A stretch of 64,000 nt of DNA from positions 2,068,092-2,132,091 of the forward strand of contig CP070812.1 of assembly GCA_020344015.1 (NCBI GenBank), read 5' to 3'. This document shows positions 10,313 through 34,968 of this stretch, piece after piece. The translations under genes were made by a program, and so were the position numbers. The DNA is from Gemmatimonadota bacterium. Its GTDB lineage: Bacteria > Gemmatimonadota > Gemmatimonadetes > Palauibacterales > KS3-K002. The notes under the pieces are model-generated. The model searched no databases and had not been told where the DNA came from. It saw only the letters and a list, made by a program, of their open reading frames with translations. Positions within the stretch are counted from its first letter, which is position 1; every line of letters begins with the position of its first letter.

Positions 10313-10354
10313 ACCCGCTGGCCGCCCGGCGAGCGACGGATGGAGGTGAGTGAG

Positions 10355-10774
10355 ATGGCTCTGAGCGCGTTTGGCGATAAGTCGAGGACGCCACGGCCCA
10401 CGGAGCTGAAGAAGACGCTCGGTCGGACGAGCGACCTGTGGGATAAGCTGAAGGACCACCTCGAATCACAGTATCAGCCGCTATCCGAGAAGTGGAGTTT
10501 CGCCGGACAGAAGTGGGGGTGGTCGCTGCAGCTGAAGCAGAAAAAGCGGACCATCTTATATATGACCCCACGCGAAGGGTTTTTCTCGACGGGTTTTGTA
10601 CTGGGAGAGAGAGCGGTGAAAGCCGCGCACGCGAGCGATTTGTCGGACTCGGTATTGGCCATGATCGACAGCGCGAAGAAGTACGTCGAGGGGAGGGGCG
10701 TTCGTATCGAGGTCAGGACCAAGAAGGACCTCGACACAACAAAGAAACTCGCCGCTATCAAGATGGCGAAGTAG
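10355..10774 (+). CDS. DUF3788-like hypothetical protein
   Basis: 'GGAGGTGAG' RBS before the ATG at 10355. Basic 139-aa protein. Confidence 0.45.
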   Translation: MALSAFGDKSRTPRPTELKKTLGRTSDLWDKLKDHLESQYQPLSEKWSFAGQKWGWSLQLKQKKRTILYMTPREGFFSTGFVLGERAVKAAHASDLSDSVLAMIDSAKKYVEGRGVRIEVRTKKDLDTTKKLAAIKMAK

Positions 10775-10798
10775 GTACTTTGAAGGGGAGGGACACTC

Positions 10799-11152
10799 AT
10801 GAGCCAGGCGGAACAGGACCGTCGTGTCGACTATATCGAGTTTGGGGTCACGGATATCGGCAAGGCTAAGAGATTCTACTCTGAAATCTTCGGCTGGGAG
10901 TTCACCGATTACGGTCCGGATTACACGAGCTTCCATGATGGCAGACTTGCCGGCGGTTTTCGCGCAGCACCGGAAGTCACACCAGGCGGCCCACTGGTCG
11001 TACTCTACGCCACGAACCTGGAAGACATCGAAGCGAGAATCAAAGAATCCGGAGGCCGGATCGTTCAGGAGACGTTCGAGTTTCCGGGCGGCCGGCGCTT
11101 TCACTTCACCGACCCGAGCGGAAATGAGCTGGCGGTCTGGTCGGATCGTTGA
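10799..11152 (+). CDS. VOC-family (glyoxalase) protein
   Basis: 'VDYIEFGVTDIGKAKRFYSEIFGWEF' VOC N-terminal motif. 117 aa. Confidence 0.75.
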   Translation: MSQAEQDRRVDYIEFGVTDIGKAKRFYSEIFGWEFTDYGPDYTSFHDGRLAGGFRAAPEVTPGGPLVVLYATNLEDIEARIKESGGRIVQETFEFPGGRRFHFTDPSGNELAVWSDR

Positions 11153-12051
11153 GTCAGAAGATTGAACGGGTGCGGTTTACCATGAACTGGGAGGGAGCGT
11201 TACCGGTTCTCGTCGCGCTGGCGGTTGGCATCTCGCCGCAGGCGCGTGCTCAGGAAAGTACTGCCGTAGTCGGGCCGGTCGAGCATGTCTACGCGTCGCC
11301 CGGAGGTCTGGACCTGAAGGCCTACGTGTTCGCGCCCGCAAACGAGGACGGTAGGGCGCCGCGGTCCGCTATAGTAGTCTTTCACGGTGGCGGTTGGCAC
11401 ATCGGGTCCGCGGAGTGGGCCTTCGGGAGGGCGACGCACTTTGCCGAACTTGGCATGGTCGCCATCGCTGCTCAGTACCGTCTGTCGGACCAGAAGTCGA
11501 TCACGCCGCTGGAGGCGATGGCCGATGCGCGGGCGGTGATTCGCTGGGTACGCTCGAACGCCGACCGCTTAGGGATCGCATCGGATCGTATCGCCGCCTA
11601 CGGCTGGTCGGCTGGCGCACACTTGGCGGCCTGTGCCGCGATCTTCGAGGACTCTCTCCCCAACGTGACCGTCAGCAACGCACCCAATGCGTTGGTCTTC
11701 GTCTCGCCGGCCGTTTCACTGGAGGGAGACAGCTGGCCCCAGCGACTTCTGGGCGAACGGGCGAGCGTCGATGAGATCTCGCCGGACATGCACGTTCGCG
11801 AGGGGTTGCCGCCCACGATCATCCTTCAAGGGCGCACGGACACGGTGACACCGCTGGCGGGCGTACAGCGTTTCTGCGACCGGATGCGCGAGGCAGGCAA
11901 TCGTTGTGACCTTCATGTCTATGACGGAGTCGGCCACCTGTTTACCCCGTCGACTGAGCCGGACGACGGATTGCCGAATCCAGATCCGGAAGTGCAGGCG
12001 GAGGCATACCAGAGGGCGGACGAGTTCTTGCGGTCGCTCGGATTCTTGTGA
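11149..12051 (+). CDS. Alpha/beta hydrolase (esterase/lipase, HGGG type) with signal peptide
   Basis: 'VVFHGGGWHIGS' oxyanion motif, 'GWSAGAHLA' nucleophile elbow, and a C-terminal 'DGVGHLF' His. Confidence 0.75.
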   Translation: MSQKIERVRFTMNWEGALPVLVALAVGISPQARAQESTAVVGPVEHVYASPGGLDLKAYVFAPANEDGRAPRSAIVVFHGGGWHIGSAEWAFGRATHFAELGMVAIAAQYRLSDQKSITPLEAMADARAVIRWVRSNADRLGIASDRIAAYGWSAGAHLAACAAIFEDSLPNVTVSNAPNALVFVSPAVSLEGDSWPQRLLGERASVDEISPDMHVREGLPPTIILQGRTDTVTPLAGVQRFCDRMREAGNRCDLHVYDGVGHLFTPSTEPDDGLPNPDPEVQAEAYQRADEFLRSLGFL

Positions 12052-25209: not shown

Positions 25210-25260
25210 ACCTGGCATGGAGAAGAGTCGATGATCTGGCAAGCTCAGGGGAGGTGCTCT

Positions 25261-26589
<1,329 letters not shown>

Positions 26590-28097: not shown

Positions 28098-28334
28098 ATG
28101 GCCTGGAAGACGGTCGACAAGTACCGGTTGGGCTACAACGTGCAGAAGAGGGCCTTCTACTTCTCCTATCGGCTCGAGGGTGACAATACCGTCTATCAGC
28201 TCTATCCATCGCCGGCGGAATTCACGGCGCTGGCCGACATGTTCAGGAACGAAGGACCGATTCACTTCAACACCGATGGGAAGTACTTTGTGACGGAGGC
28301 CGAGGAGGTGGGTGAGGAGGAGAGCGCCCCCTAG
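28098..28334 (+). CDS. Hypothetical small protein
   Basis: 78 aa, 'AAAGGAGAA' RBS, acidic C-terminus. Confidence 0.4.
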   Translation: MAWKTVDKYRLGYNVQKRAFYFSYRLEGDNTVYQLYPSPAEFTALADMFRNEGPIHFNTDGKYFVTEAEEVGEEESAP

Positions 28335-28356: not shown

Positions 28357-30603
28357 ATGACGGAGCACTCAGACCGTTTGCGTTCAGCCCTGGCCGACCG
28401 CTACGCCATCGAACACGAGCTGGGTAGCGGCGGTATGGCCGTCGTATACCTCGCCGGCGATCTTCGGCACGACCGCCAGGTAGCTGTGAAAGTCCTCCGT
28501 CCCGAGCTCGCCGCCGCCATGGGTGGGGATCGCTTCCTGCGCGAGATCAAGCTCACCGCGAAGCTCAATCACCCGCACATCCTGCCGTTGCTCGATTCCG
28601 GGGAAGCCGACGGGTTCCTCTACTACGTGATGCCGTACGTGGCGGGCGAGTCGCTGCGGGGACGACTGGAGCGCGAGACCCAGCTCCCTGTGGACGAGGC
28701 GCTGCGCATCACGCAACAGGTGGCCTCGGCCCTGGACTTCGCCCATCGCCAGGACGTGATCCACCGGGACATCAAGCCGGAGAACATCCTGCTCCATGAA
28801 GGCGAAGCGATGGTGGCGGACTTCGGGATCGCGCTGGCGGTGAGCGCGGCGAGAGGCCAGCGGCTGACGGAGACGGGTGTCTCGGTGGGTACGCCGGAGT
28901 ACATGAGCCCAGAGCAGGCGCTGGGCGAGGGGGAGCCGGACGCGCGGAGCGACATCTACAGTCTGGGTTGTGTGCTGTACGAGACGCTGGTGGGCGAGCC
29001 GCCGTACACGGGTCCGACGGCGATGGCGGTGTTGGCGAAGCGGTTGAGCGATCCGGTGCCGAGCGCGCGGCGGTTGCGGGCGGCGATCCCGGAGCCGATG
29101 GACGCGGCGCTGCTGCGGGCGCTGGCGAAGGAGCGTGCCGACCGGTTCGGGAGTGCGGGTGAGTTCGCGGAGGCGTTGGCCGCGGAGGCGGCTGAGGAGA
29201 CGGAGGCGGTGAAGTCGATTGTGGTATTGCCGTTCGAGAATCTGAGCCCCGATCCGGACAACGCGTTCTTCGCAGATGGACTGACGGAGGAGCTGATTGC
29301 CGACCTCTCGAAGCTCCGGGCGCTGCGTGTGATCTCGCGAACCTCGGCGATGGCGTTCAAAGGCACGAGCAAGAAGGTCCCGGAGATCGCGGAGGAGTTA
29401 AACGTTCGGTACGTGTTGGAGGGGAGCGTTCGGCGTGCGGCGAATAGTGTGCGTATCACCGCCCAGCTAATCGAGGCGGCGACGGATGCGCACCTCTGGG
29501 CCGAGAAGTACAGCGGCACGCTGGACGCCGTCTTCGACATGCAGGAGCAGGTGTCCCGAGCGATCGTCGACGCGCTAGAACTGGAATTGACGGGAGTCGA
29601 GGACCGACAGATCGCTAAGCGACCGATCGCAGACGCGCGGGCGTACGACTGCTATCTGAGAGCTCGAGCTGCGATCTGGCATGTTGCGGAGGGAGGTCTT
29701 GATGAGGCCGCGCGAAATTTCGAGGAGGGTCTCGCGATTGTCGGTGATAATGCGCTGCTCTACGCCGGTCTAGCCCATGTCTGGCTCGAGTACGTACGCA
29801 CTTGGATCAAGCACGAAGATGAGCTTGCGAGGGCAGAAGACTATGCCAACAGGGCGCTGAGTCTCGATCCCGACACGGCGCTGGCGTGCGTCGTGTTGGG
29901 AGTCGTCGAGTACCTGCGCGGGAAGGGGAAGGAGGGTCTGCCCTGGCTCAAGCGGGCGCATATTCTGGATCCGAATGACCACGAGATCCACCACTGGTCG
30001 GGCTGGGCTTACATACTAGCGGGAAGGACGTCCAGCGCCTTCCCGCTCGCCCAACGCATGATCGAGCTGGATCCACTCAACCCTCTTAATGTCTTCCTGG
30101 GAATCGTACACTTCTACGCGGGTCAGTTCAACGAGGCCGTCGAGTTGGCGAGCAAGTTCGAGTCGCCGGCGGCACTGGACCTGCCGTGGTATCGATGGTG
30201 GGCAGCCTATTTCCTGGTCTATGCCGAACGCCCGGAAGAAGCGCTGGACCTCCTGGAGCCGATTGAGCGGACGACCGCAACGGACCTTTTCACCCAGAAC
30301 GCTCGATTCTTGCGGTACGCGCTGCGGGGAGAGAGGGATCGGATCCCCGAGTTATTGACCGATACTTTCGTGGCGCAGGAGCGGAGAGACGCGGCGGTGT
30401 CTTGTTGGGCCGCAACGTGCTACGCGATGCTCGACGACTACCAGCAGGCGCTCGACTGGCTCGAGAACGCCGTGGACCGCGGGTTTCTCAACTACCCCTA
30501 TCTCGCCGAGCACGACCCTTTCCTGGCCAAGTTCCGCGATGAACCGCAGTTCAAGGAACTAATGGTCCGCGTGAAACGCGAATGGGAGCAGCTTGAGGTT
30601 TAG
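28357..30603 (+). CDS. Ser/Thr protein kinase with C-terminal TPR/tetratricopeptide-like domain
   Basis: 'LGSGGMAVVYLA…AVKVL', 'HRDIKPENILL', 'DFGIA', 'GTPEYMSPEQ' Hanks subdomains. 748 aa with a TPR-like tail. Confidence 0.85.
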   Translation: MTEHSDRLRSALADRYAIEHELGSGGMAVVYLAGDLRHDRQVAVKVLRPELAAAMGGDRFLREIKLTAKLNHPHILPLLDSGEADGFLYYVMPYVAGESLRGRLERETQLPVDEALRITQQVASALDFAHRQDVIHRDIKPENILLHEGEAMVADFGIALAVSAARGQRLTETGVSVGTPEYMSPEQALGEGEPDARSDIYSLGCVLYETLVGEPPYTGPTAMAVLAKRLSDPVPSARRLRAAIPEPMDAALLRALAKERADRFGSAGEFAEALAAEAAEETEAVKSIVVLPFENLSPDPDNAFFADGLTEELIADLSKLRALRVISRTSAMAFKGTSKKVPEIAEELNVRYVLEGSVRRAANSVRITAQLIEAATDAHLWAEKYSGTLDAVFDMQEQVSRAIVDALELELTGVEDRQIAKRPIADARAYDCYLRARAAIWHVAEGGLDEAARNFEEGLAIVGDNALLYAGLAHVWLEYVRTWIKHEDELARAEDYANRALSLDPDTALACVVLGVVEYLRGKGKEGLPWLKRAHILDPNDHEIHHWSGWAYILAGRTSSAFPLAQRMIELDPLNPLNVFLGIVHFYAGQFNEAVELASKFESPAALDLPWYRWWAAYFLVYAERPEEALDLLEPIERTTATDLFTQNARFLRYALRGERDRIPELLTDTFVAQERRDAAVSCWAATCYAMLDDYQQALDWLENAVDRGFLNYPYLAEHDPFLAKFRDEPQFKELMVRVKREWEQLEV

Positions 30604-30607
30604 AGCG

Positions 30608-32068
30608 ATGACTACGCCACCGGAACGGGACCAAACGATAGAACGTCGCGGCGAGCGGGCGCTGCTGGTGGCGGTAGAAGGCCAGAAAGGGACGGCGCGG
30701 TTCGTCGGAAACTGCCGCATCGGTCGCGCGCCGGATAACGACCTTGTCATCGAGTCGCGCTCGGTGAGCCTCTACCACGCCGAGGCCGTGCTTGAGGGCG
30801 GAAGCTGGCAGCTGCGTGACTTGGGCAGCACGAACGGAACCGTAGTCTCCGGCCAGCGGATCGATCGCATCACTCTGGGTGGGCCGACGCGCGTGCACCT
30901 AGGTTTCGAGGGCCCGAGGCTGACGCTGACGCCCGAGGGCCTGGAGGGGATGGCGGAAGCCGAGCCGACGCTCGTGCCGTCGGAGAGCGCCATCGTGAGG
31001 CGCTACTTCGCGCCGCGTGCGCCGAAGAACATTGGGACTCATACTGCGGCGCTGCGCCGAGCGTTCGCCAATATACAGAGACGACGCACTCATAAGTACG
31101 CGGCAGCGCTCCTGGCCGTCGCGACGTTCGGTCTGGCCGCCGGCAGCTACGCCTACCTACTACACAAACGGATGCAGAGGCAACGCTCCGCGGCGGAGAG
31201 CTTGTTCTATGCCTCGAAGGACATCGAACTCGCGCTCGCCAAATTGGAGGGCAGCGGGGACGAGCGGCAGGCTCAGCAGGCACGCCACGCCGAGTTCGAA
31301 AAACAGTATCAGGACTTTCTGAAAGAACTCGGCATCTACAGTGACGCGACACCGGAAGAAGTGCAGCTGGTCTACCGGGTGGCGCACCGGTTCGGCGAGT
31401 CGGAGGTCAACGTTCCGCAGGATTTCGTGGACGCGGTTCTCACCTACGTCAGACTTTGGAAGACATCGCCGCGGCTTGAGGATGCCATGGAGCGGGCGCA
31501 GCGCAACGGCTACGGCCAGCGGATCGCCAAAACGATGCTGGAGCACGGCCTGCCACCCGAGTTCTTCTACCTCGCATTGCAGGAAAGCGATCTACGAGTG
31601 GAGGCGACGGGTCCCGAGACGCGGTACGGGATCGCCAAAGGGATGTGGCAGTTCGTGCCGGGGACCGCGCGCGACTACGGTCTCAAGACGGGTCCTCTGG
31701 TGGGAGTCAGACGGCCTGATTCCCTGGACGAGCGGCACGACTTCGAGAAGTCGACGCGGGCGGCGGCGCGCTACCTGCGGCGGATCTACACGACCGACGC
31801 TCAAGCATCGGGCCTTCTGGTGATCGCGTCGTACAACTGGGGCGAATCGAACATCCTGCGGCTGGTCCGCTCGCTGCCCGAGAACCCGCATGAGCGTAAC
31901 TTCTGGCGACTGCTCGACAAGTACCGCGAGCAAATTCCGCAGGAGACCTACGACTATGTCTTCAGCATAGTCTCGGCCGCGGTCATCGGCGAGGACCCGG
32001 AGCTTTTCGGGTTCGATTTCGACCCGCCCTACGACCGTCCTGAGATCGTAGCGGCCAGCGGAGACTAG
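30608..32068 (+). CDS. FHA domain - TM - lytic transglycosylase (SLT) domain protein
   Basis: N-terminal FHA ('GRAPDNDLVI…LRDLGSTNGTVVSGQRI'). One TM helix. C-terminal SLT domain ('ETRYGIAKGMWQFVPGTARDYGL', 'SYNWGESNI'). Starts 5 nt after the kinase stop. Confidence 0.75.
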   Translation: MTTPPERDQTIERRGERALLVAVEGQKGTARFVGNCRIGRAPDNDLVIESRSVSLYHAEAVLEGGSWQLRDLGSTNGTVVSGQRIDRITLGGPTRVHLGFEGPRLTLTPEGLEGMAEAEPTLVPSESAIVRRYFAPRAPKNIGTHTAALRRAFANIQRRRTHKYAAALLAVATFGLAAGSYAYLLHKRMQRQRSAAESLFYASKDIELALAKLEGSGDERQAQQARHAEFEKQYQDFLKELGIYSDATPEEVQLVYRVAHRFGESEVNVPQDFVDAVLTYVRLWKTSPRLEDAMERAQRNGYGQRIAKTMLEHGLPPEFFYLALQESDLRVEATGPETRYGIAKGMWQFVPGTARDYGLKTGPLVGVRRPDSLDERHDFEKSTRAAARYLRRIYTTDAQASGLLVIASYNWGESNILRLVRSLPENPHERNFWRLLDKYREQIPQETYDYVFSIVSAAVIGEDPELFGFDFDPPYDRPEIVAASGD

Positions 32069-32089: not shown

Positions 32090-34747
32090 CTATAGCGACT
32101 CGAAGCGTCCCTGGAAGAAGCGCAACTTCGATGGCTCGTAGACGAACTTGAGTCCCTTGATCTCCTCTCTGCGGTCGTAAACGCGTCGGATCCCTTCCGC
32201 CACCGCCTTCATGTGATCGTTGGTGTAGACGCGACGCGGGATGGTAAGCCGCACCAGCTCGAGCGCCGGCCGGTAGTTGGCGCCGGTTTCGGGATTGCGG
32301 CCCTTCGACACGTTGCCGCGCTCCATCGCCCGCACCCCGGTCTCGACGTAGATCTCCGCCGCCAGCCGCTGGGCGGGGAACTCGTCCTGGTCGATCTGGG
32401 GCAGGAAACGCTTTGCGTCGAGGAAGATGGCGTGGCTGCCCGGGGGCGTGACGATGGGGATGCCCAGCTCGAGCAGCAGCTCGCCGAGATACTGGGTCTG
32501 CTCGACGCGTGAGCGGATGTAGCGGTCGTCGACCATCTCTTCTATCCCGCGTGCGATGGCCGCCAGGTCGGCGGTGGATAGGCCGCCGTCGGAGATGTTG
32601 CCCTCGTAGATGCGGAGCAGCTCGTGGGCCTTCTGGGCCAGGTCCGCGTTTTCCCGGAAACAAAGCACACCGCCGATGTTGATCAGGAAATCCTTCTTGC
32701 CGCTGACCGTGCAGCCGTCGCCGTAGAGCATCATCTCGCGGATGATGTCCTTTACCTTGGTCTTGTGGTAGCGGGCATCACGGCTCTGGATCATGTAGGC
32801 GTTTTCGGCGAAGCGGGTAGCGTCGAAGAACACCGGGATGCCCACCGCACTGCAGTACTCGTAGACTTCCTTCATGTTGTCCATGCTGGCCGGCTGACCG
32901 CCGGCCATGTTGACAGAATGCTCGAACGAGAGGTAGGCGATCTTCTGGGCGCCGTGCTCGTCGACCAGCGCTCTGAGCTTGTCGAGGTCGATGTTCCCCT
33001 TCCATTGGAACTCGCTCTCCGGGTTGTGCGCATCGTCGACGATGACGTCGACGAAGACGCCGCCGGCCATCTCCTGGTGCAGCTTGGTGGTCGTGAAGTA
33101 CATGTTGCCCGGCACCAGCTGGCCGTCCTTGATGCAGATCTGGCTGAGGATGTGCTCGGCGGCCCGTCCCTGGTGCGTGGGAATGATGTGATCGTAGCCG
33201 GTAACGTCCTGGAGGACCTCGACCAGGCGGCGGTACTCAGCGCTCATGGTCGTGCTGGCGCGCACGCCCTCGTAGGCGGCCCACTGGTCGGTGCTCATCG
33301 CCGATGTGCCCGAGTCGGTGAGCAGGTCGATGGCGACGTCGGCCGAGCGCAGCAGGAACGTGTTGTACCCGGCGGCGCGGATCGCCTTCTCGCGGTGGCC
33401 GCGGGTGAGTGCACCCACCTTCTCGATCGTGTGGATCGTGTAAGGGAAGGTGTCGAAGGAGAAGGGCTCGAGTGTGGGATAGACCCAGGTGTACTGCATC
33501 TGGTCGCGCCAGCTGCCGATGACCGACGCCTGTAGCCCGGTCACTTTATCGCGCTGTGCGAAGAGGCTGATGATGGCGTCGGCCACCTGATCAAGCTGAT
33601 CGGTGGTCATCGCCTGACGCGGGAGCTGCACCGGCAGCAAGTTGTCGCGACCAACCAGCCCCTGCGCGGTAGCTCGCACACCCGACATCAGGTAGAGGGC
33701 GGCTGACAACGTGTCCTGCTGGTGGACTTTCACGTGGGGCAGGAATTCGTCGGCCATGATGTAGGCGCCGTCGCAGCCGCGCTCGAGCGGCACGCCGCCG
33801 TCTCGCAGCCGCTGCGTGAAGCGCTCGGTCTGATACATGTCCCAGTGCACCTCGTCCTCGTCGCACATCTCCATGATGCCGCGGGCGAGGACCTCCATCG
33901 TGCGGCCGGCCATGCCGCCGTAGGTGTGCAGGCCCTCGAAGACGACGACCTCGTTCATGAATTTCTCGTGGTCGTCGGGGTTGTCGGTGACGAGGATGCC
34001 GCCGGTGTTGCACTTGGGATCCTGGGCGCCGTCCATCAAGAAGATGTGGCAGGTCTTGGCTATCTGTTTCACGAGGTCGGCGATCGAGCGGTCGGCCTGA
34101 CCCGGCTCGTGCTGCTGGATGTACCAGGCGTTCTCGATGACGCGCGAGCCGTCGCAGATCAACCGCTTGCCGTACTTATCTGCCAGAGCTCGGACGCCGC
34201 GCAGGTTCTCGAGGCTGAACGGGTGCTGCCCGTCGGCGAAGGCCTGGATGCCGACGAACGCCACGCTATGTGCCTTGAGGGTCTGTTCCAGCTTACCCAG
34301 GTCCATGTCGCCGGTGAAGACGGGCTGCTCGCGGTCCCGCGTGTCGGGGTACTGGATGCCTAGAGGATCCAAAACATCCAGTTTGGTGCGGGCGTTGCTC
34401 GGCACGACAGATCCAAGCGGCACCATGGTCGTAACGATCAGCTTGACCGAGCCCAGGTTGTTGTGTGTGGGACATACGTAGGTGTGACCGAGAACCTCGC
34501 GGACCGCCGTCTCGAGCGCCTCGAAGTTCCGGGAACCGGCGTAGGCCTCGTCGCCGATGAACTGGCCGGCCAGCTGTTCCTGGCTGAGTGCATTGGTACC
34601 CAGCGAGCACATGTCGAACGTGACCTGCCCGGGCGTCAGGTTCCAGACGTTGAAGTCGGCTTCGGCAAGGTATTTCTTTCGCTCGTCGAGCTTTGGCCAG
34701 GACAAGAGGCGGACGGTCTTGATCTTGTGCGGTTCGTGATTCGCCAT
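32090..34747 (-). CDS. Tandem-fused beta-eliminating lyase (tryptophanase/tyrosine phenol-lyase family), 885 aa
   Basis: The C-terminal half (aa ~430-885) aligns along its full length with TnaA/Tpl ('FLLRSADVAIDLLTDSGT', 'IPTHQGRAAE', 'NMAGGQP', 'VSGKKDFLINIGGVLC', 'RLTIPRRVYT'). The N-terminal half is a diverged second copy ('CPTHNNLGS', 'MDGAQDPKCNTGGIL') in which the PLP-Lys position appears substituted. Confidence 0.75.
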   Translation of the reverse strand: MANHEPHKIKTVRLLSWPKLDERKKYLAEADFNVWNLTPGQVTFDMCSLGTNALSQEQLAGQFIGDEAYAGSRNFEALETAVREVLGHTYVCPTHNNLGSVKLIVTTMVPLGSVVPSNARTKLDVLDPLGIQYPDTRDREQPVFTGDMDLGKLEQTLKAHSVAFVGIQAFADGQHPFSLENLRGVRALADKYGKRLICDGSRVIENAWYIQQHEPGQADRSIADLVKQIAKTCHIFLMDGAQDPKCNTGGILVTDNPDDHEKFMNEVVVFEGLHTYGGMAGRTMEVLARGIMEMCDEDEVHWDMYQTERFTQRLRDGGVPLERGCDGAYIMADEFLPHVKVHQQDTLSAALYLMSGVRATAQGLVGRDNLLPVQLPRQAMTTDQLDQVADAIISLFAQRDKVTGLQASVIGSWRDQMQYTWVYPTLEPFSFDTFPYTIHTIEKVGALTRGHREKAIRAAGYNTFLLRSADVAIDLLTDSGTSAMSTDQWAAYEGVRASTTMSAEYRRLVEVLQDVTGYDHIIPTHQGRAAEHILSQICIKDGQLVPGNMYFTTTKLHQEMAGGVFVDVIVDDAHNPESEFQWKGNIDLDKLRALVDEHGAQKIAYLSFEHSVNMAGGQPASMDNMKEVYEYCSAVGIPVFFDATRFAENAYMIQSRDARYHKTKVKDIIREMMLYGDGCTVSGKKDFLINIGGVLCFRENADLAQKAHELLRIYEGNISDGGLSTADLAAIARGIEEMVDDRYIRSRVEQTQYLGELLLELGIPIVTPPGSHAIFLDAKRFLPQIDQDEFPAQRLAAEIYVETGVRAMERGNVSKGRNPETGANYRPALELVRLTIPRRVYTNDHMKAVAEGIRRVYDRREEIKGLKFVYEPSKLRFFQGRFESL

Positions 34748-34968
34748 TGATCCCCCCTGGGGGCGGTGATTGTCTCTGCGTCAGGGGCCGCGCCGGACGC
34801 GGTCCGTCTCTTCGGTGTGTGCGGTCCCTCAACCTATCCGAGCGTGGCCACCTACAAAAGAGCGTTTCTGGCCTGGTCCGAAGGAGCGACGTATCTTCCT
34901 CGGGCCGCTTCCGGCGGTATGGATTGCCGCCTCCCCATTCGGTTATAGCAACACCAGAGGAGGGATAG

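Follow-up and report, generated by a model that had tools for sequence, protein, structure and literature searches.

Positions 28,357 to 32,068 of a 64,000-nucleotide (nt) stretch of a Gemmatimonadota genome (contig CP070812.1; the whole stretch is referred to here as the window) hold two adjacent forward-strand genes, the first encoding a TPR-tailed Hanks-type Ser/Thr kinase and the second a protein, hereafter FHA-SLT, in which an FHA domain that would read phosphothreonine (pThr) is joined through a single transmembrane (TM) helix to an SLT lytic transglycosylase domain. We analysed the architecture of both proteins, their pairing in close relatives, and the gene neighbourhoods of the wider FHA-SLT family, which include genes for Hanks kinases, PP2C phosphatases and, in other phyla, components of type VI secretion systems (T6SS). 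The features of the locus are listed below by window position (aa, amino acids; ORF, open reading frame).

28357–30603, forward strand: Hanks-type Ser/Thr kinase ORF, 748 aa, predicted soluble (ORF scan, Pfam, motif reading)
28402–29205, forward strand: kinase domain, aa 16–283
29206–29583, forward strand: TolB-N/FlgO-like domain of the kinase, aa ~284–409 (weak matches only)
29674–30576, forward strand: TPR region of the kinase, aa ~440–740
30595–30598, forward strand: GAGG ribosome-binding site of the FHA-SLT gene, within the 3′ end of the kinase ORF (sequence reading)
30608–32068, forward strand: FHA-TM-SLT protein, 486 aa (ORF list, Pfam, AlphaFold2 model, >120 full-length homologue clusters)
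30662–30934, forward strand: cytoplasmic FHA domain, aa 19–109, with pThr-binding residues G39, R40, S54, H57, S74, N76 and G77
30983–31057, forward strand: cytoplasmic juxtamembrane motif RYF...G-x-H-T146-x-x-(L/I/V/M)-R150, aa 126–150 (T146 codon 31043–31045)
31100–31168, forward strand: single TM helix, aa 165–187 (hydropathy maximum 1.68)
31355–32008, forward strand: periplasmic MltD-like SLT (family 1) lytic transglycosylase domain, aa 250–467 (E326 at 31583–31585; QES, GxWQF and YNWG motifs)

Architecture of the fusion protein and its operon

Both ends of FHA-SLT match their families well above the Pfam cut-offs, with FHA (PF00498) at residues 36–98 (E-value 4.9e-15, 56.2 bits against a cut-off of 20.7) and SLT (PF01464) at residues 315–421 (E-value 2.1e-13, 50.3 bits against 21.3). 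An AlphaFold2 model built from 118 homologues (predicted local distance difference test score, pLDDT, of 90) agrees with this arrangement of FHA domain, one TM helix and SLT domain, which had been proposed in a sequence-only reading of the locus. The model comprises an FHA beta-sandwich (residues 19–109), a low-confidence linker, a continuous helix (144–212), a helical hairpin and an all-alpha SLT domain (250–467), and the stretch at residues 165–187, which is hydrophobic in all homologues shown, falls inside helix 144–212. Residue conservation was measured on an alignment of 81 cross-phylum sequences. The phosphopeptide-binding residues of the FHA domain, whose loss had been named in the sequence-only reading as grounds for regarding the link to the kinase as coincidental, are all present, with G39, R40, S54, H57, S74, N76 and G77 each 97–98% conserved; among the 118 closer homologues, G39, R40, S54, H57 and G77 never vary, and at least 90% keep S74 and N76. 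Conservation in the SLT domain is complete for E326, S327, W347, Q348, Y409 and N410 (100%) and reaches 98–100% for the GxWQF and YNWG motifs. By these residues, the FHA end and the transglycosylase end both look functional.

The nearest FHA structures by sequence and fold are the FHA domains of GarA, OdhI, Rv1747 and EmbR, which are true pThr readers, with target-normalised template modelling scores (TM-scores) of 0.76–0.87 for the fold matches to GarA, Rv1747 and OdhI. The domain could instead have a purely structural role that does not depend on phosphorylation, like its counterparts in the ring proteins YscD/PrgH of type III secretion systems (T3SS), and the protein would then be a constitutive membrane-anchored transglycosylase. 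This would be in keeping with a Yop-YscD_cpl match (PF16697; 39.6 bits against a cut-off of 33.2), which falls on the residues of the stronger FHA match, and with the presence of the T3SS FHA-like structure 4d9v among the fold matches. We consider it very improbable, however, since the canonical pThr-contacting residues are conserved at ≥97%, the best matches are to pThr-binding domains, and a structural role would leave the strong linkage to PP2C and kinase genes (see below) unexplained. No T3SS gene was found among the annotated neighbours of FHA-SLT loci.

The catalytic domain is most similar to that of MltD (family 1D), the ES, GxWQF and YNxG motifs being common to both, and the best PDB sequence match of this part of the protein is 8rhe, a LysM-domain protein of the MltD type (E-value 2.6e-11, residues 282–480). 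Unlike MltD, FHA-SLT has neither a lipoprotein signal nor a LysM match in Pfam but starts with an FHA domain and is anchored by a TM helix, and its NCBIfam match to the MltD equivalog PRK10783 (E-value 1.3e-14, 53.3 bits) is far below the cut-off of 508.

Within the juxtamembrane motif, T146 is 96% and R150 92% conserved across phyla in the 81-sequence alignment, and position +3 of T146 is aliphatic in the sampled rows (27 of 81 printed). Classically, FHA domains prefer pTxx(I/L/V), with an aliphatic residue at +3. We hypothesise that T146 is a candidate phospho-acceptor or FHA ligand, on the model of GarA-style binding of a pThr by the FHA domain of the same chain. A point on the other side is that the AlphaFold2 model places the motif at the N-terminal end of helix 144–212, ~20 residues before the TM helix, and at this N-cap position the conservation of T146 may be structural. 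Even where their N-termini differ, many representatives of the family can be aligned from around residue 125.

The upstream gene is a TPR-tailed Hanks kinase, as had been recognised from the sequence. Its Pkinase match (PF00069, residues 16–229; E-value 2e-48, 165.5 bits against a cut-off of 31.7) is followed C-terminally by several TPR families and a weak FlgO match, and its catalytic motifs are all intact (Gly-loop G23, VAVK45, HRDIKPEN136, DFG155, SPE184), with Thr171 and Thr173 in the activation loop. NCBIfam returned only sub-threshold equivalog matches, plus TPR_END_plus; the PknB/Stk1 PASTA kinase model NF033483 scored 313 bits, below its cut-off of 450 and over the kinase domain only, and no PASTA match was found in Pfam. 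The kinase has no TM-like segment (maximum 19-residue hydropathy 1.38, with the peak within folded domains) and is therefore predicted to be soluble and to lack a juxtamembrane region, so that the juxtamembrane Thr residues attributed to it in the sequence-only reading have no counterpart.

The kinase stop codon (TAG, 30601–30603) is separated from the FHA-SLT start codon (ATG, 30608) by agcg, a gap of 4 nt and not the 5 nt first reported. The ORF scan lists TTG at 30593, which would overlap the kinase stop, as the start of the second ORF; ATG 30608 yields the 486-aa protein. No promoter-like or terminator-like site was found between the two genes, the scan giving nothing above shuffled expectation, and the gene 3′ of FHA-SLT (32090–34747, reverse strand) is convergent. 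Taken together, the 4-nt gap, the ribosome-binding site inside the kinase ORF, the lack of an intervening promoter or terminator and the convergent next gene indicate that both genes form the 3′ end of a transcription unit, and from this arrangement they are predicted to be translationally coupled. The pairing exceeds chance, as the only Hanks kinase detected across the window is the one coupled to the FHA-SLT gene.

The convergent gene encodes an 885-aa protein with two tandem beta-eliminating-lyase (tryptophanase-like) halves and is kept at the same position in the related loci L081, L083 and L085. On the other side of the pair, a 78-aa ORF (28098–28334, forward strand) ends 22 nt before the kinase start codon; it has a 97% identical counterpart in L081 (5742–5978), is present in L082 and has a weak match in L083 and L084. 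We rejected this ORF as a conserved partner, as it has no Pfam match and was detected in the closest relatives only, with none in the more distant loci.

The kinase pairing in close relatives

Three close relatives (L083, L084 and L091), in which FHA-SLT is 87% identical to that of the window, carry a 749-aa kinase-TPR gene at the same place and with the same 4-nt spacing. Two further loci (L088 and L089, 57–58% identical) have a PP2C gene divergently upstream of FHA-SLT and a homologous kinase-TolB-like-TPR gene 1.3–4 kb downstream; small ORFs between PP2C and FHA-SLT in these loci have no Pfam match and no similarity to the 78-aa ORF of the window. Across the family, a kinase gene lies directly upstream of FHA-SLT on the same strand in at least nine loci from four phyla (L036, L040, L070, L091, L095, L109, L111, L123 and L146), and the upstream kinase of L040 (Acidobacteriota) has the full kinase/TolB-like/TPR architecture, with 32% identity over 751 residues.

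The kinase itself is unevenly conserved. Compared with the L083 protein, the window kinase is 60% identical overall, 90% in the kinase domain and 28–37% in the TPR region, and the DNA of L083 fails to align with positions 29577–30450, whereas the sequence on either side aligns at ~83%. This points to a sensor or tail that is either hypervariable or has been replaced. Membrane topology also differs among the homologous kinases: in those of L088 (10726–13356) and L089 (13623–16244), the kinase domain is separated from the TolB-like/TPR part by a TM helix, which is absent from the kinases of the window (linker 29190–29240), L083 and L040. The TolB-like/TPR part would accordingly be periplasmic in L088 and L089 and cytoplasmic in the window, L083 and L040, an apparent topology switch inside one kinase family.

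Several observations weigh against the kinase-gated reading proposed below. In L081, the relative with the most similar FHA-SLT (93% identical), synteny with the window extends on both sides but there is no kinase ORF: 43 nt stand in place of window positions 28369–30629, the FHA-SLT ORF begins with the kinase ATG and first four codons (MTEH), and FHA-SLT is intact with all key residues kept. Most simply, this absence would reflect a deletion in the L081 lineage, since the more distant L083 has the kinase, and such a deletion fits an indel-rich neighbourhood among the close relatives: a 434-aa gene (10320–11624) and a DoxX gene (2461–2898) of L081 are absent from the window (compared at 34879–34956 and 25210–25292), and fucosidase and SnoaL genes are missing in L083. 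As FHA-SLT of L081 retains its key residues, the enzyme is not strictly dependent on this kinase. In addition, the TPR part of the kinase diverges very fast in comparison with FHA-SLT (28–37% against 87% identity), the window kinase lacks the TM helix typical of most partner kinases, three Gemmatimonadota loci (L086, L087 and L090) have neither a kinase nor a PP2C gene within 6–8 kb, and no gene for PP2C or for a T6SS marker (TssK, TssL, TssM, VgrG, ClpV or PAAR-like) was found in the window.

These data bear on the alternative that the local adjacency is incidental or only loosely functional, with FHA-SLT being served by kinases encoded elsewhere or by none and the TPR kinase being a fast-evolving accessory gene. 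The clean loss of the kinase beside an intact FHA-SLT in L081, its divergence from the kinase of an 87% relative and the Gemmatimonadota loci without a nearby kinase are all as this alternative would predict. We nevertheless consider it rather unlikely, because it does not account for the 4-nt gap with its shared ribosome-binding-site arrangement, the status of this kinase as the only one in 64 kb, the recurrence of the kinase-upstream order in at least nine loci of four phyla, or the homologous kinase architecture near FHA-SLT in L088, L089 and L040. The kinase pairing is labile at this locus, and the kinase as an obligate partner is not supported.

Family spread and gene linkage

The fusion is not confined to this lineage. 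A scan of one genome per species identified at least 554 carrier genomes, of which the best 80 encode full-length proteins and belong to Gemmatimonadota, Acidobacteriota, Ignavibacteriota/Bacteroidota, Desulfobacterota, Nitrospirota, Geobacter, Thiocapsa and Methylococcaceae. Gammaproteobacteria are among the groups carrying it. A protein search returned >120 full-length FHA+SLT clusters at 46–93% identity, from Gemmatimonadota or Longimicrobiales where the source was named, and an exhaustive search of representatives gave 253 clusters at 50% identity with E-values up to 1e-30. A rough neighbour-joining tree of the family largely follows taxonomy. Given these numbers and this tree, FHA-SLT is a real, old and common family rather than a local accident.

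Linkage to kinase and PP2C genes was assessed with hidden Markov models made from neighbour clusters with Pfam-annotated representatives, which were applied to 80 genome loci (±6 kb) and 80 independent metagenome loci with the following counts.

80 genome loci: kinase in 33, PP2C in 22, either in 39, T6SS core genes in 10
80 metagenome loci: kinase in 21, PP2C in 15, either in 32, T6SS core genes in 16

Of the 22 genome loci with a PP2C gene, 16 carry it immediately beside FHA-SLT, although only 12% of the flanking DNA lies that close (binomial p 1e-10), and of the 33 with a kinase gene, 27 have it no more than 2.5 kb away (p 5e-5), with the qualification that these p-values ignore the shared ancestry of loci and so overstate their independence. 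Kinase genes in the genome set occur upstream, downstream and on either strand. A kinase, PP2C or T6SS marker is present in 29 of the 39 metagenome loci of at least 7 kb, and the linkage is scattered over all clades of the FHA-SLT tree. About half of all loci show no kinase or PP2C gene within 6 kb, which counts against a general dependence on linked partners. Even allowing for shared ancestry, the range of gene orders and of phyla is an argument that proximity has been selected repeatedly. The expectation in the sequence-only reading that the pairing would be conserved in relatives therefore stands at the level of the family, where a kinase or PP2C gene lies within 6 kb in 39/80 and 32/80 loci, and does not stand for this individual kinase, which is lost in L081. 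Likewise, family-level linkage supports the kinase-controlled peptidoglycan remodelling suggested there, whereas this specific kinase appears dispensable, having apparently been deleted in the nearest relative.

The PP2C partner and the T6SS genes beside family members in other phyla form a wider context that had been missed from the window alone. Neighbour clusters annotated with Pfam include TssK (VasE), TssL (DotU), TssM (IcmF), VgrG, ClpV and PAAR-like (DUF4150-type) proteins, as well as pentapeptide and DUF3540 proteins of the kind usual in vgrG islands, and T6SS core genes adjoin family members in 26 of the 160 loci (10/80 genome and 16/80 metagenome). One order found in Acidobacteriaceae is FHA-SLT and PP2C followed by TssM-TssL-TssK on the opposite strand, and another is ClpV-VgrG-TssK-TssK-FHA-SLT. 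Ignavibacteria show the order pentapeptide-pentapeptide-x-PAAR-like-FHA-SLT-PP2C-kinase, which Geobacter resembles with extra genes interposed; in Thiocapsa the upstream part of this order is present and PP2C and kinase were not detected. As FHA-SLT follows PAAR-like genes in some loci, a secreted T6SS effector was considered and rejected because of the N-terminal cytoplasmic FHA domain, the TM anchor and the downstream PP2C and kinase genes; a regulator or assembly factor fits better.

Whether FHA-SLT is a dedicated T6SS accessory in this organism too, acting as a scaffold like Fha/TagH and as a wall-opening enzyme for a T6SS encoded outside the window, was weighed on the same data. The 26 loci with adjoining core genes and the PAAR-like, pentapeptide and DUF3540 vgrG-island genes at others would agree with such a role, as would the report of T6SS in Gemmatimonadetes (PMC9113992). 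Both halves of the proposed function also have established precedents, in the PpkA/PppA/Fha threonine-phosphorylation pathway of T6SS (PMC2660368) and in the need of T6SS assembly for a peptidoglycan-remodelling enzyme, which may be the endopeptidase TagX or MltE, whose gene is not part of the locus (PMC13584744). However, no T6SS gene was found near FHA-SLT in the window or in any Gemmatimonadota locus examined, the roughly taxonomic tree suggests vertical inheritance, whereas T6SS is reported to be patchy (PMC9113992), and the T6SS FHA family (TagH/Fha1) of NCBIfam gave no match at E-values up to 0.1. A T6SS role in this organism is consequently improbable.

Other genes recur near FHA-SLT. 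A PEPCK_ATP (PEP carboxykinase) gene adjoins it, or is one small ORF away, in loci from Calditrichota, KSB1, an unclassified bacterium and Gemmatimonadota (L032, 7445–9058; L057; L066; L087, 6215–7795). A trypsin-like protease gene lies between PP2C and kinase, downstream of FHA-SLT, in loci of the deltaproteobacterial/Geobacter type, and a DcrB-like gene is directly upstream of FHA-SLT in Ignavibacteria; loci with one or other of these lineage-specific extra members are L046, L051, L052, L071, L073, L094, L102, L117, L124 and L153.

Proposed mechanism and comparison with known systems

We favour, as a probable though far from certain reading, kinase-gated peptidoglycan cleavage through a bitopic FHA-lytic transglycosylase that is controlled by a kinase/PP2C switch, and at the level of the family such gating is plausible. 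FHA-SLT would be an inner-membrane enzyme with its MltD-like domain in the periplasm and its pThr-reading FHA domain in the cytoplasm. A Hanks kinase, here the soluble TPR-tailed one co-translated from the operon, would create a pThr mark, for which the candidate sites are the activation loop or linker of the kinase, Thr146 in the juxtamembrane motif of FHA-SLT, or a partner protein in the membrane. Binding of the mark by the FHA domain would then alter the location or oligomerisation of the enzyme across the membrane, such that peptidoglycan is cut only where and when signalled, and a PP2C phosphatase would reset the switch. In this genome, where no T6SS or PP2C gene is nearby, FHA-SLT may serve wall remodelling in general under the control of the kinase. 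In many other lineages, where FHA-SLT, PP2C and kinase form a module in or next to T6SS loci, this module would probably act as a phospho-gated 'space-maker' for assembly of the machine, joining the roles of Fha/TagH and a dedicated peptidoglycan hydrolase, and its target site would probably be the assembling membrane complex.

The closest parallel to this module is the PpkA (TagE)/PppA (TagG)/Fha1 (TagH) system, which likewise unites a Hanks kinase, a PP2C phosphatase and an FHA protein near TssK/L/M, VgrG and ClpV. Unlike Fha1 (TagH), the FHA protein described here is membrane-anchored, fused to a lytic transglycosylase and outside the NCBIfam T6SS FHA family, and, unlike PpkA, the kinase of this locus lacks both a TM segment and a periplasmic domain, and no T6SS gene lies in the window; FHA-SLT may work like Fha/TagH, yet it is not a member of that family. 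MltE of enteroaggregative Escherichia coli (EAEC) and TagX of Acinetobacter are likewise envelope enzymes that would open the peptidoglycan layer, and TagX, which is encoded in T6SS loci, resembles FHA-SLT in its inner-membrane anchor and periplasmic catalytic domain (PMC13584744). In contrast to FHA-SLT, MltE is a lipoprotein with a housekeeping role whose gene lies outside the locus and TagX is an L,D-endopeptidase, and neither has an FHA domain or other phospho-reader.

A second parallel is offered by the actinobacterial PknB-FHA circuits (FhaA-MviN/CwlM, FipA/FhaB Rv0019c and GarA/OdhI), in which pThr is written by a Hanks kinase and read by FHA proteins, with wall synthesis or hydrolysis under their control. 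The FHA domain of FHA-SLT, which is nearest to GarA/OdhI and has a sub-threshold match to FhaB/FipA, belongs to the same kind of reader. The actinobacterial reader and enzyme are separate proteins, whereas here they form one membrane-spanning polypeptide, in diderm phyla.

Control of wall enzymes by Hanks kinases and FHA proteins in Actinobacteria, threonine phosphorylation in T6SS and specialised transglycosylases for envelope machines are already known. What appears to be undescribed is a pThr reader fused to a transglycosylase across the membrane, with a wide distribution and a linkage to T6SS: full-text searches found no relevant description of an FHA-transglycosylase fusion, and a 2026 review of T6SS accessory genes names none (PMC13584744). 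More tentatively, and as a possibility that we rank below the general gating proposed above, FHA-TM-SLT could be an unrecognised class of phospho-gated, space-making transglycosylases, governed by a kinase/PP2C switch through the FHA domain and possibly Thr146, that replaces Fha/TagH and MltE/TagX in the T6SS of Acidobacteriota, Ignavibacteriota, Desulfobacterota and some Gammaproteobacteria.

For lytic transglycosylases, which are dangerous enzymes, confinement of the activity in space and time is largely unexplained. A cytoplasmic pThr reader joined to a periplasmic transglycosylase would offer a simple means of relaying a kinase signal through the membrane to the wall. The repeated occurrence of this fusion beside kinase/PP2C pairs and T6SS genes suggests a way in which T6SSs outside the proteobacteria could link a threonine-phosphorylation checkpoint to peptidoglycan opening, two steps that to our knowledge have so far been known only as separate components.

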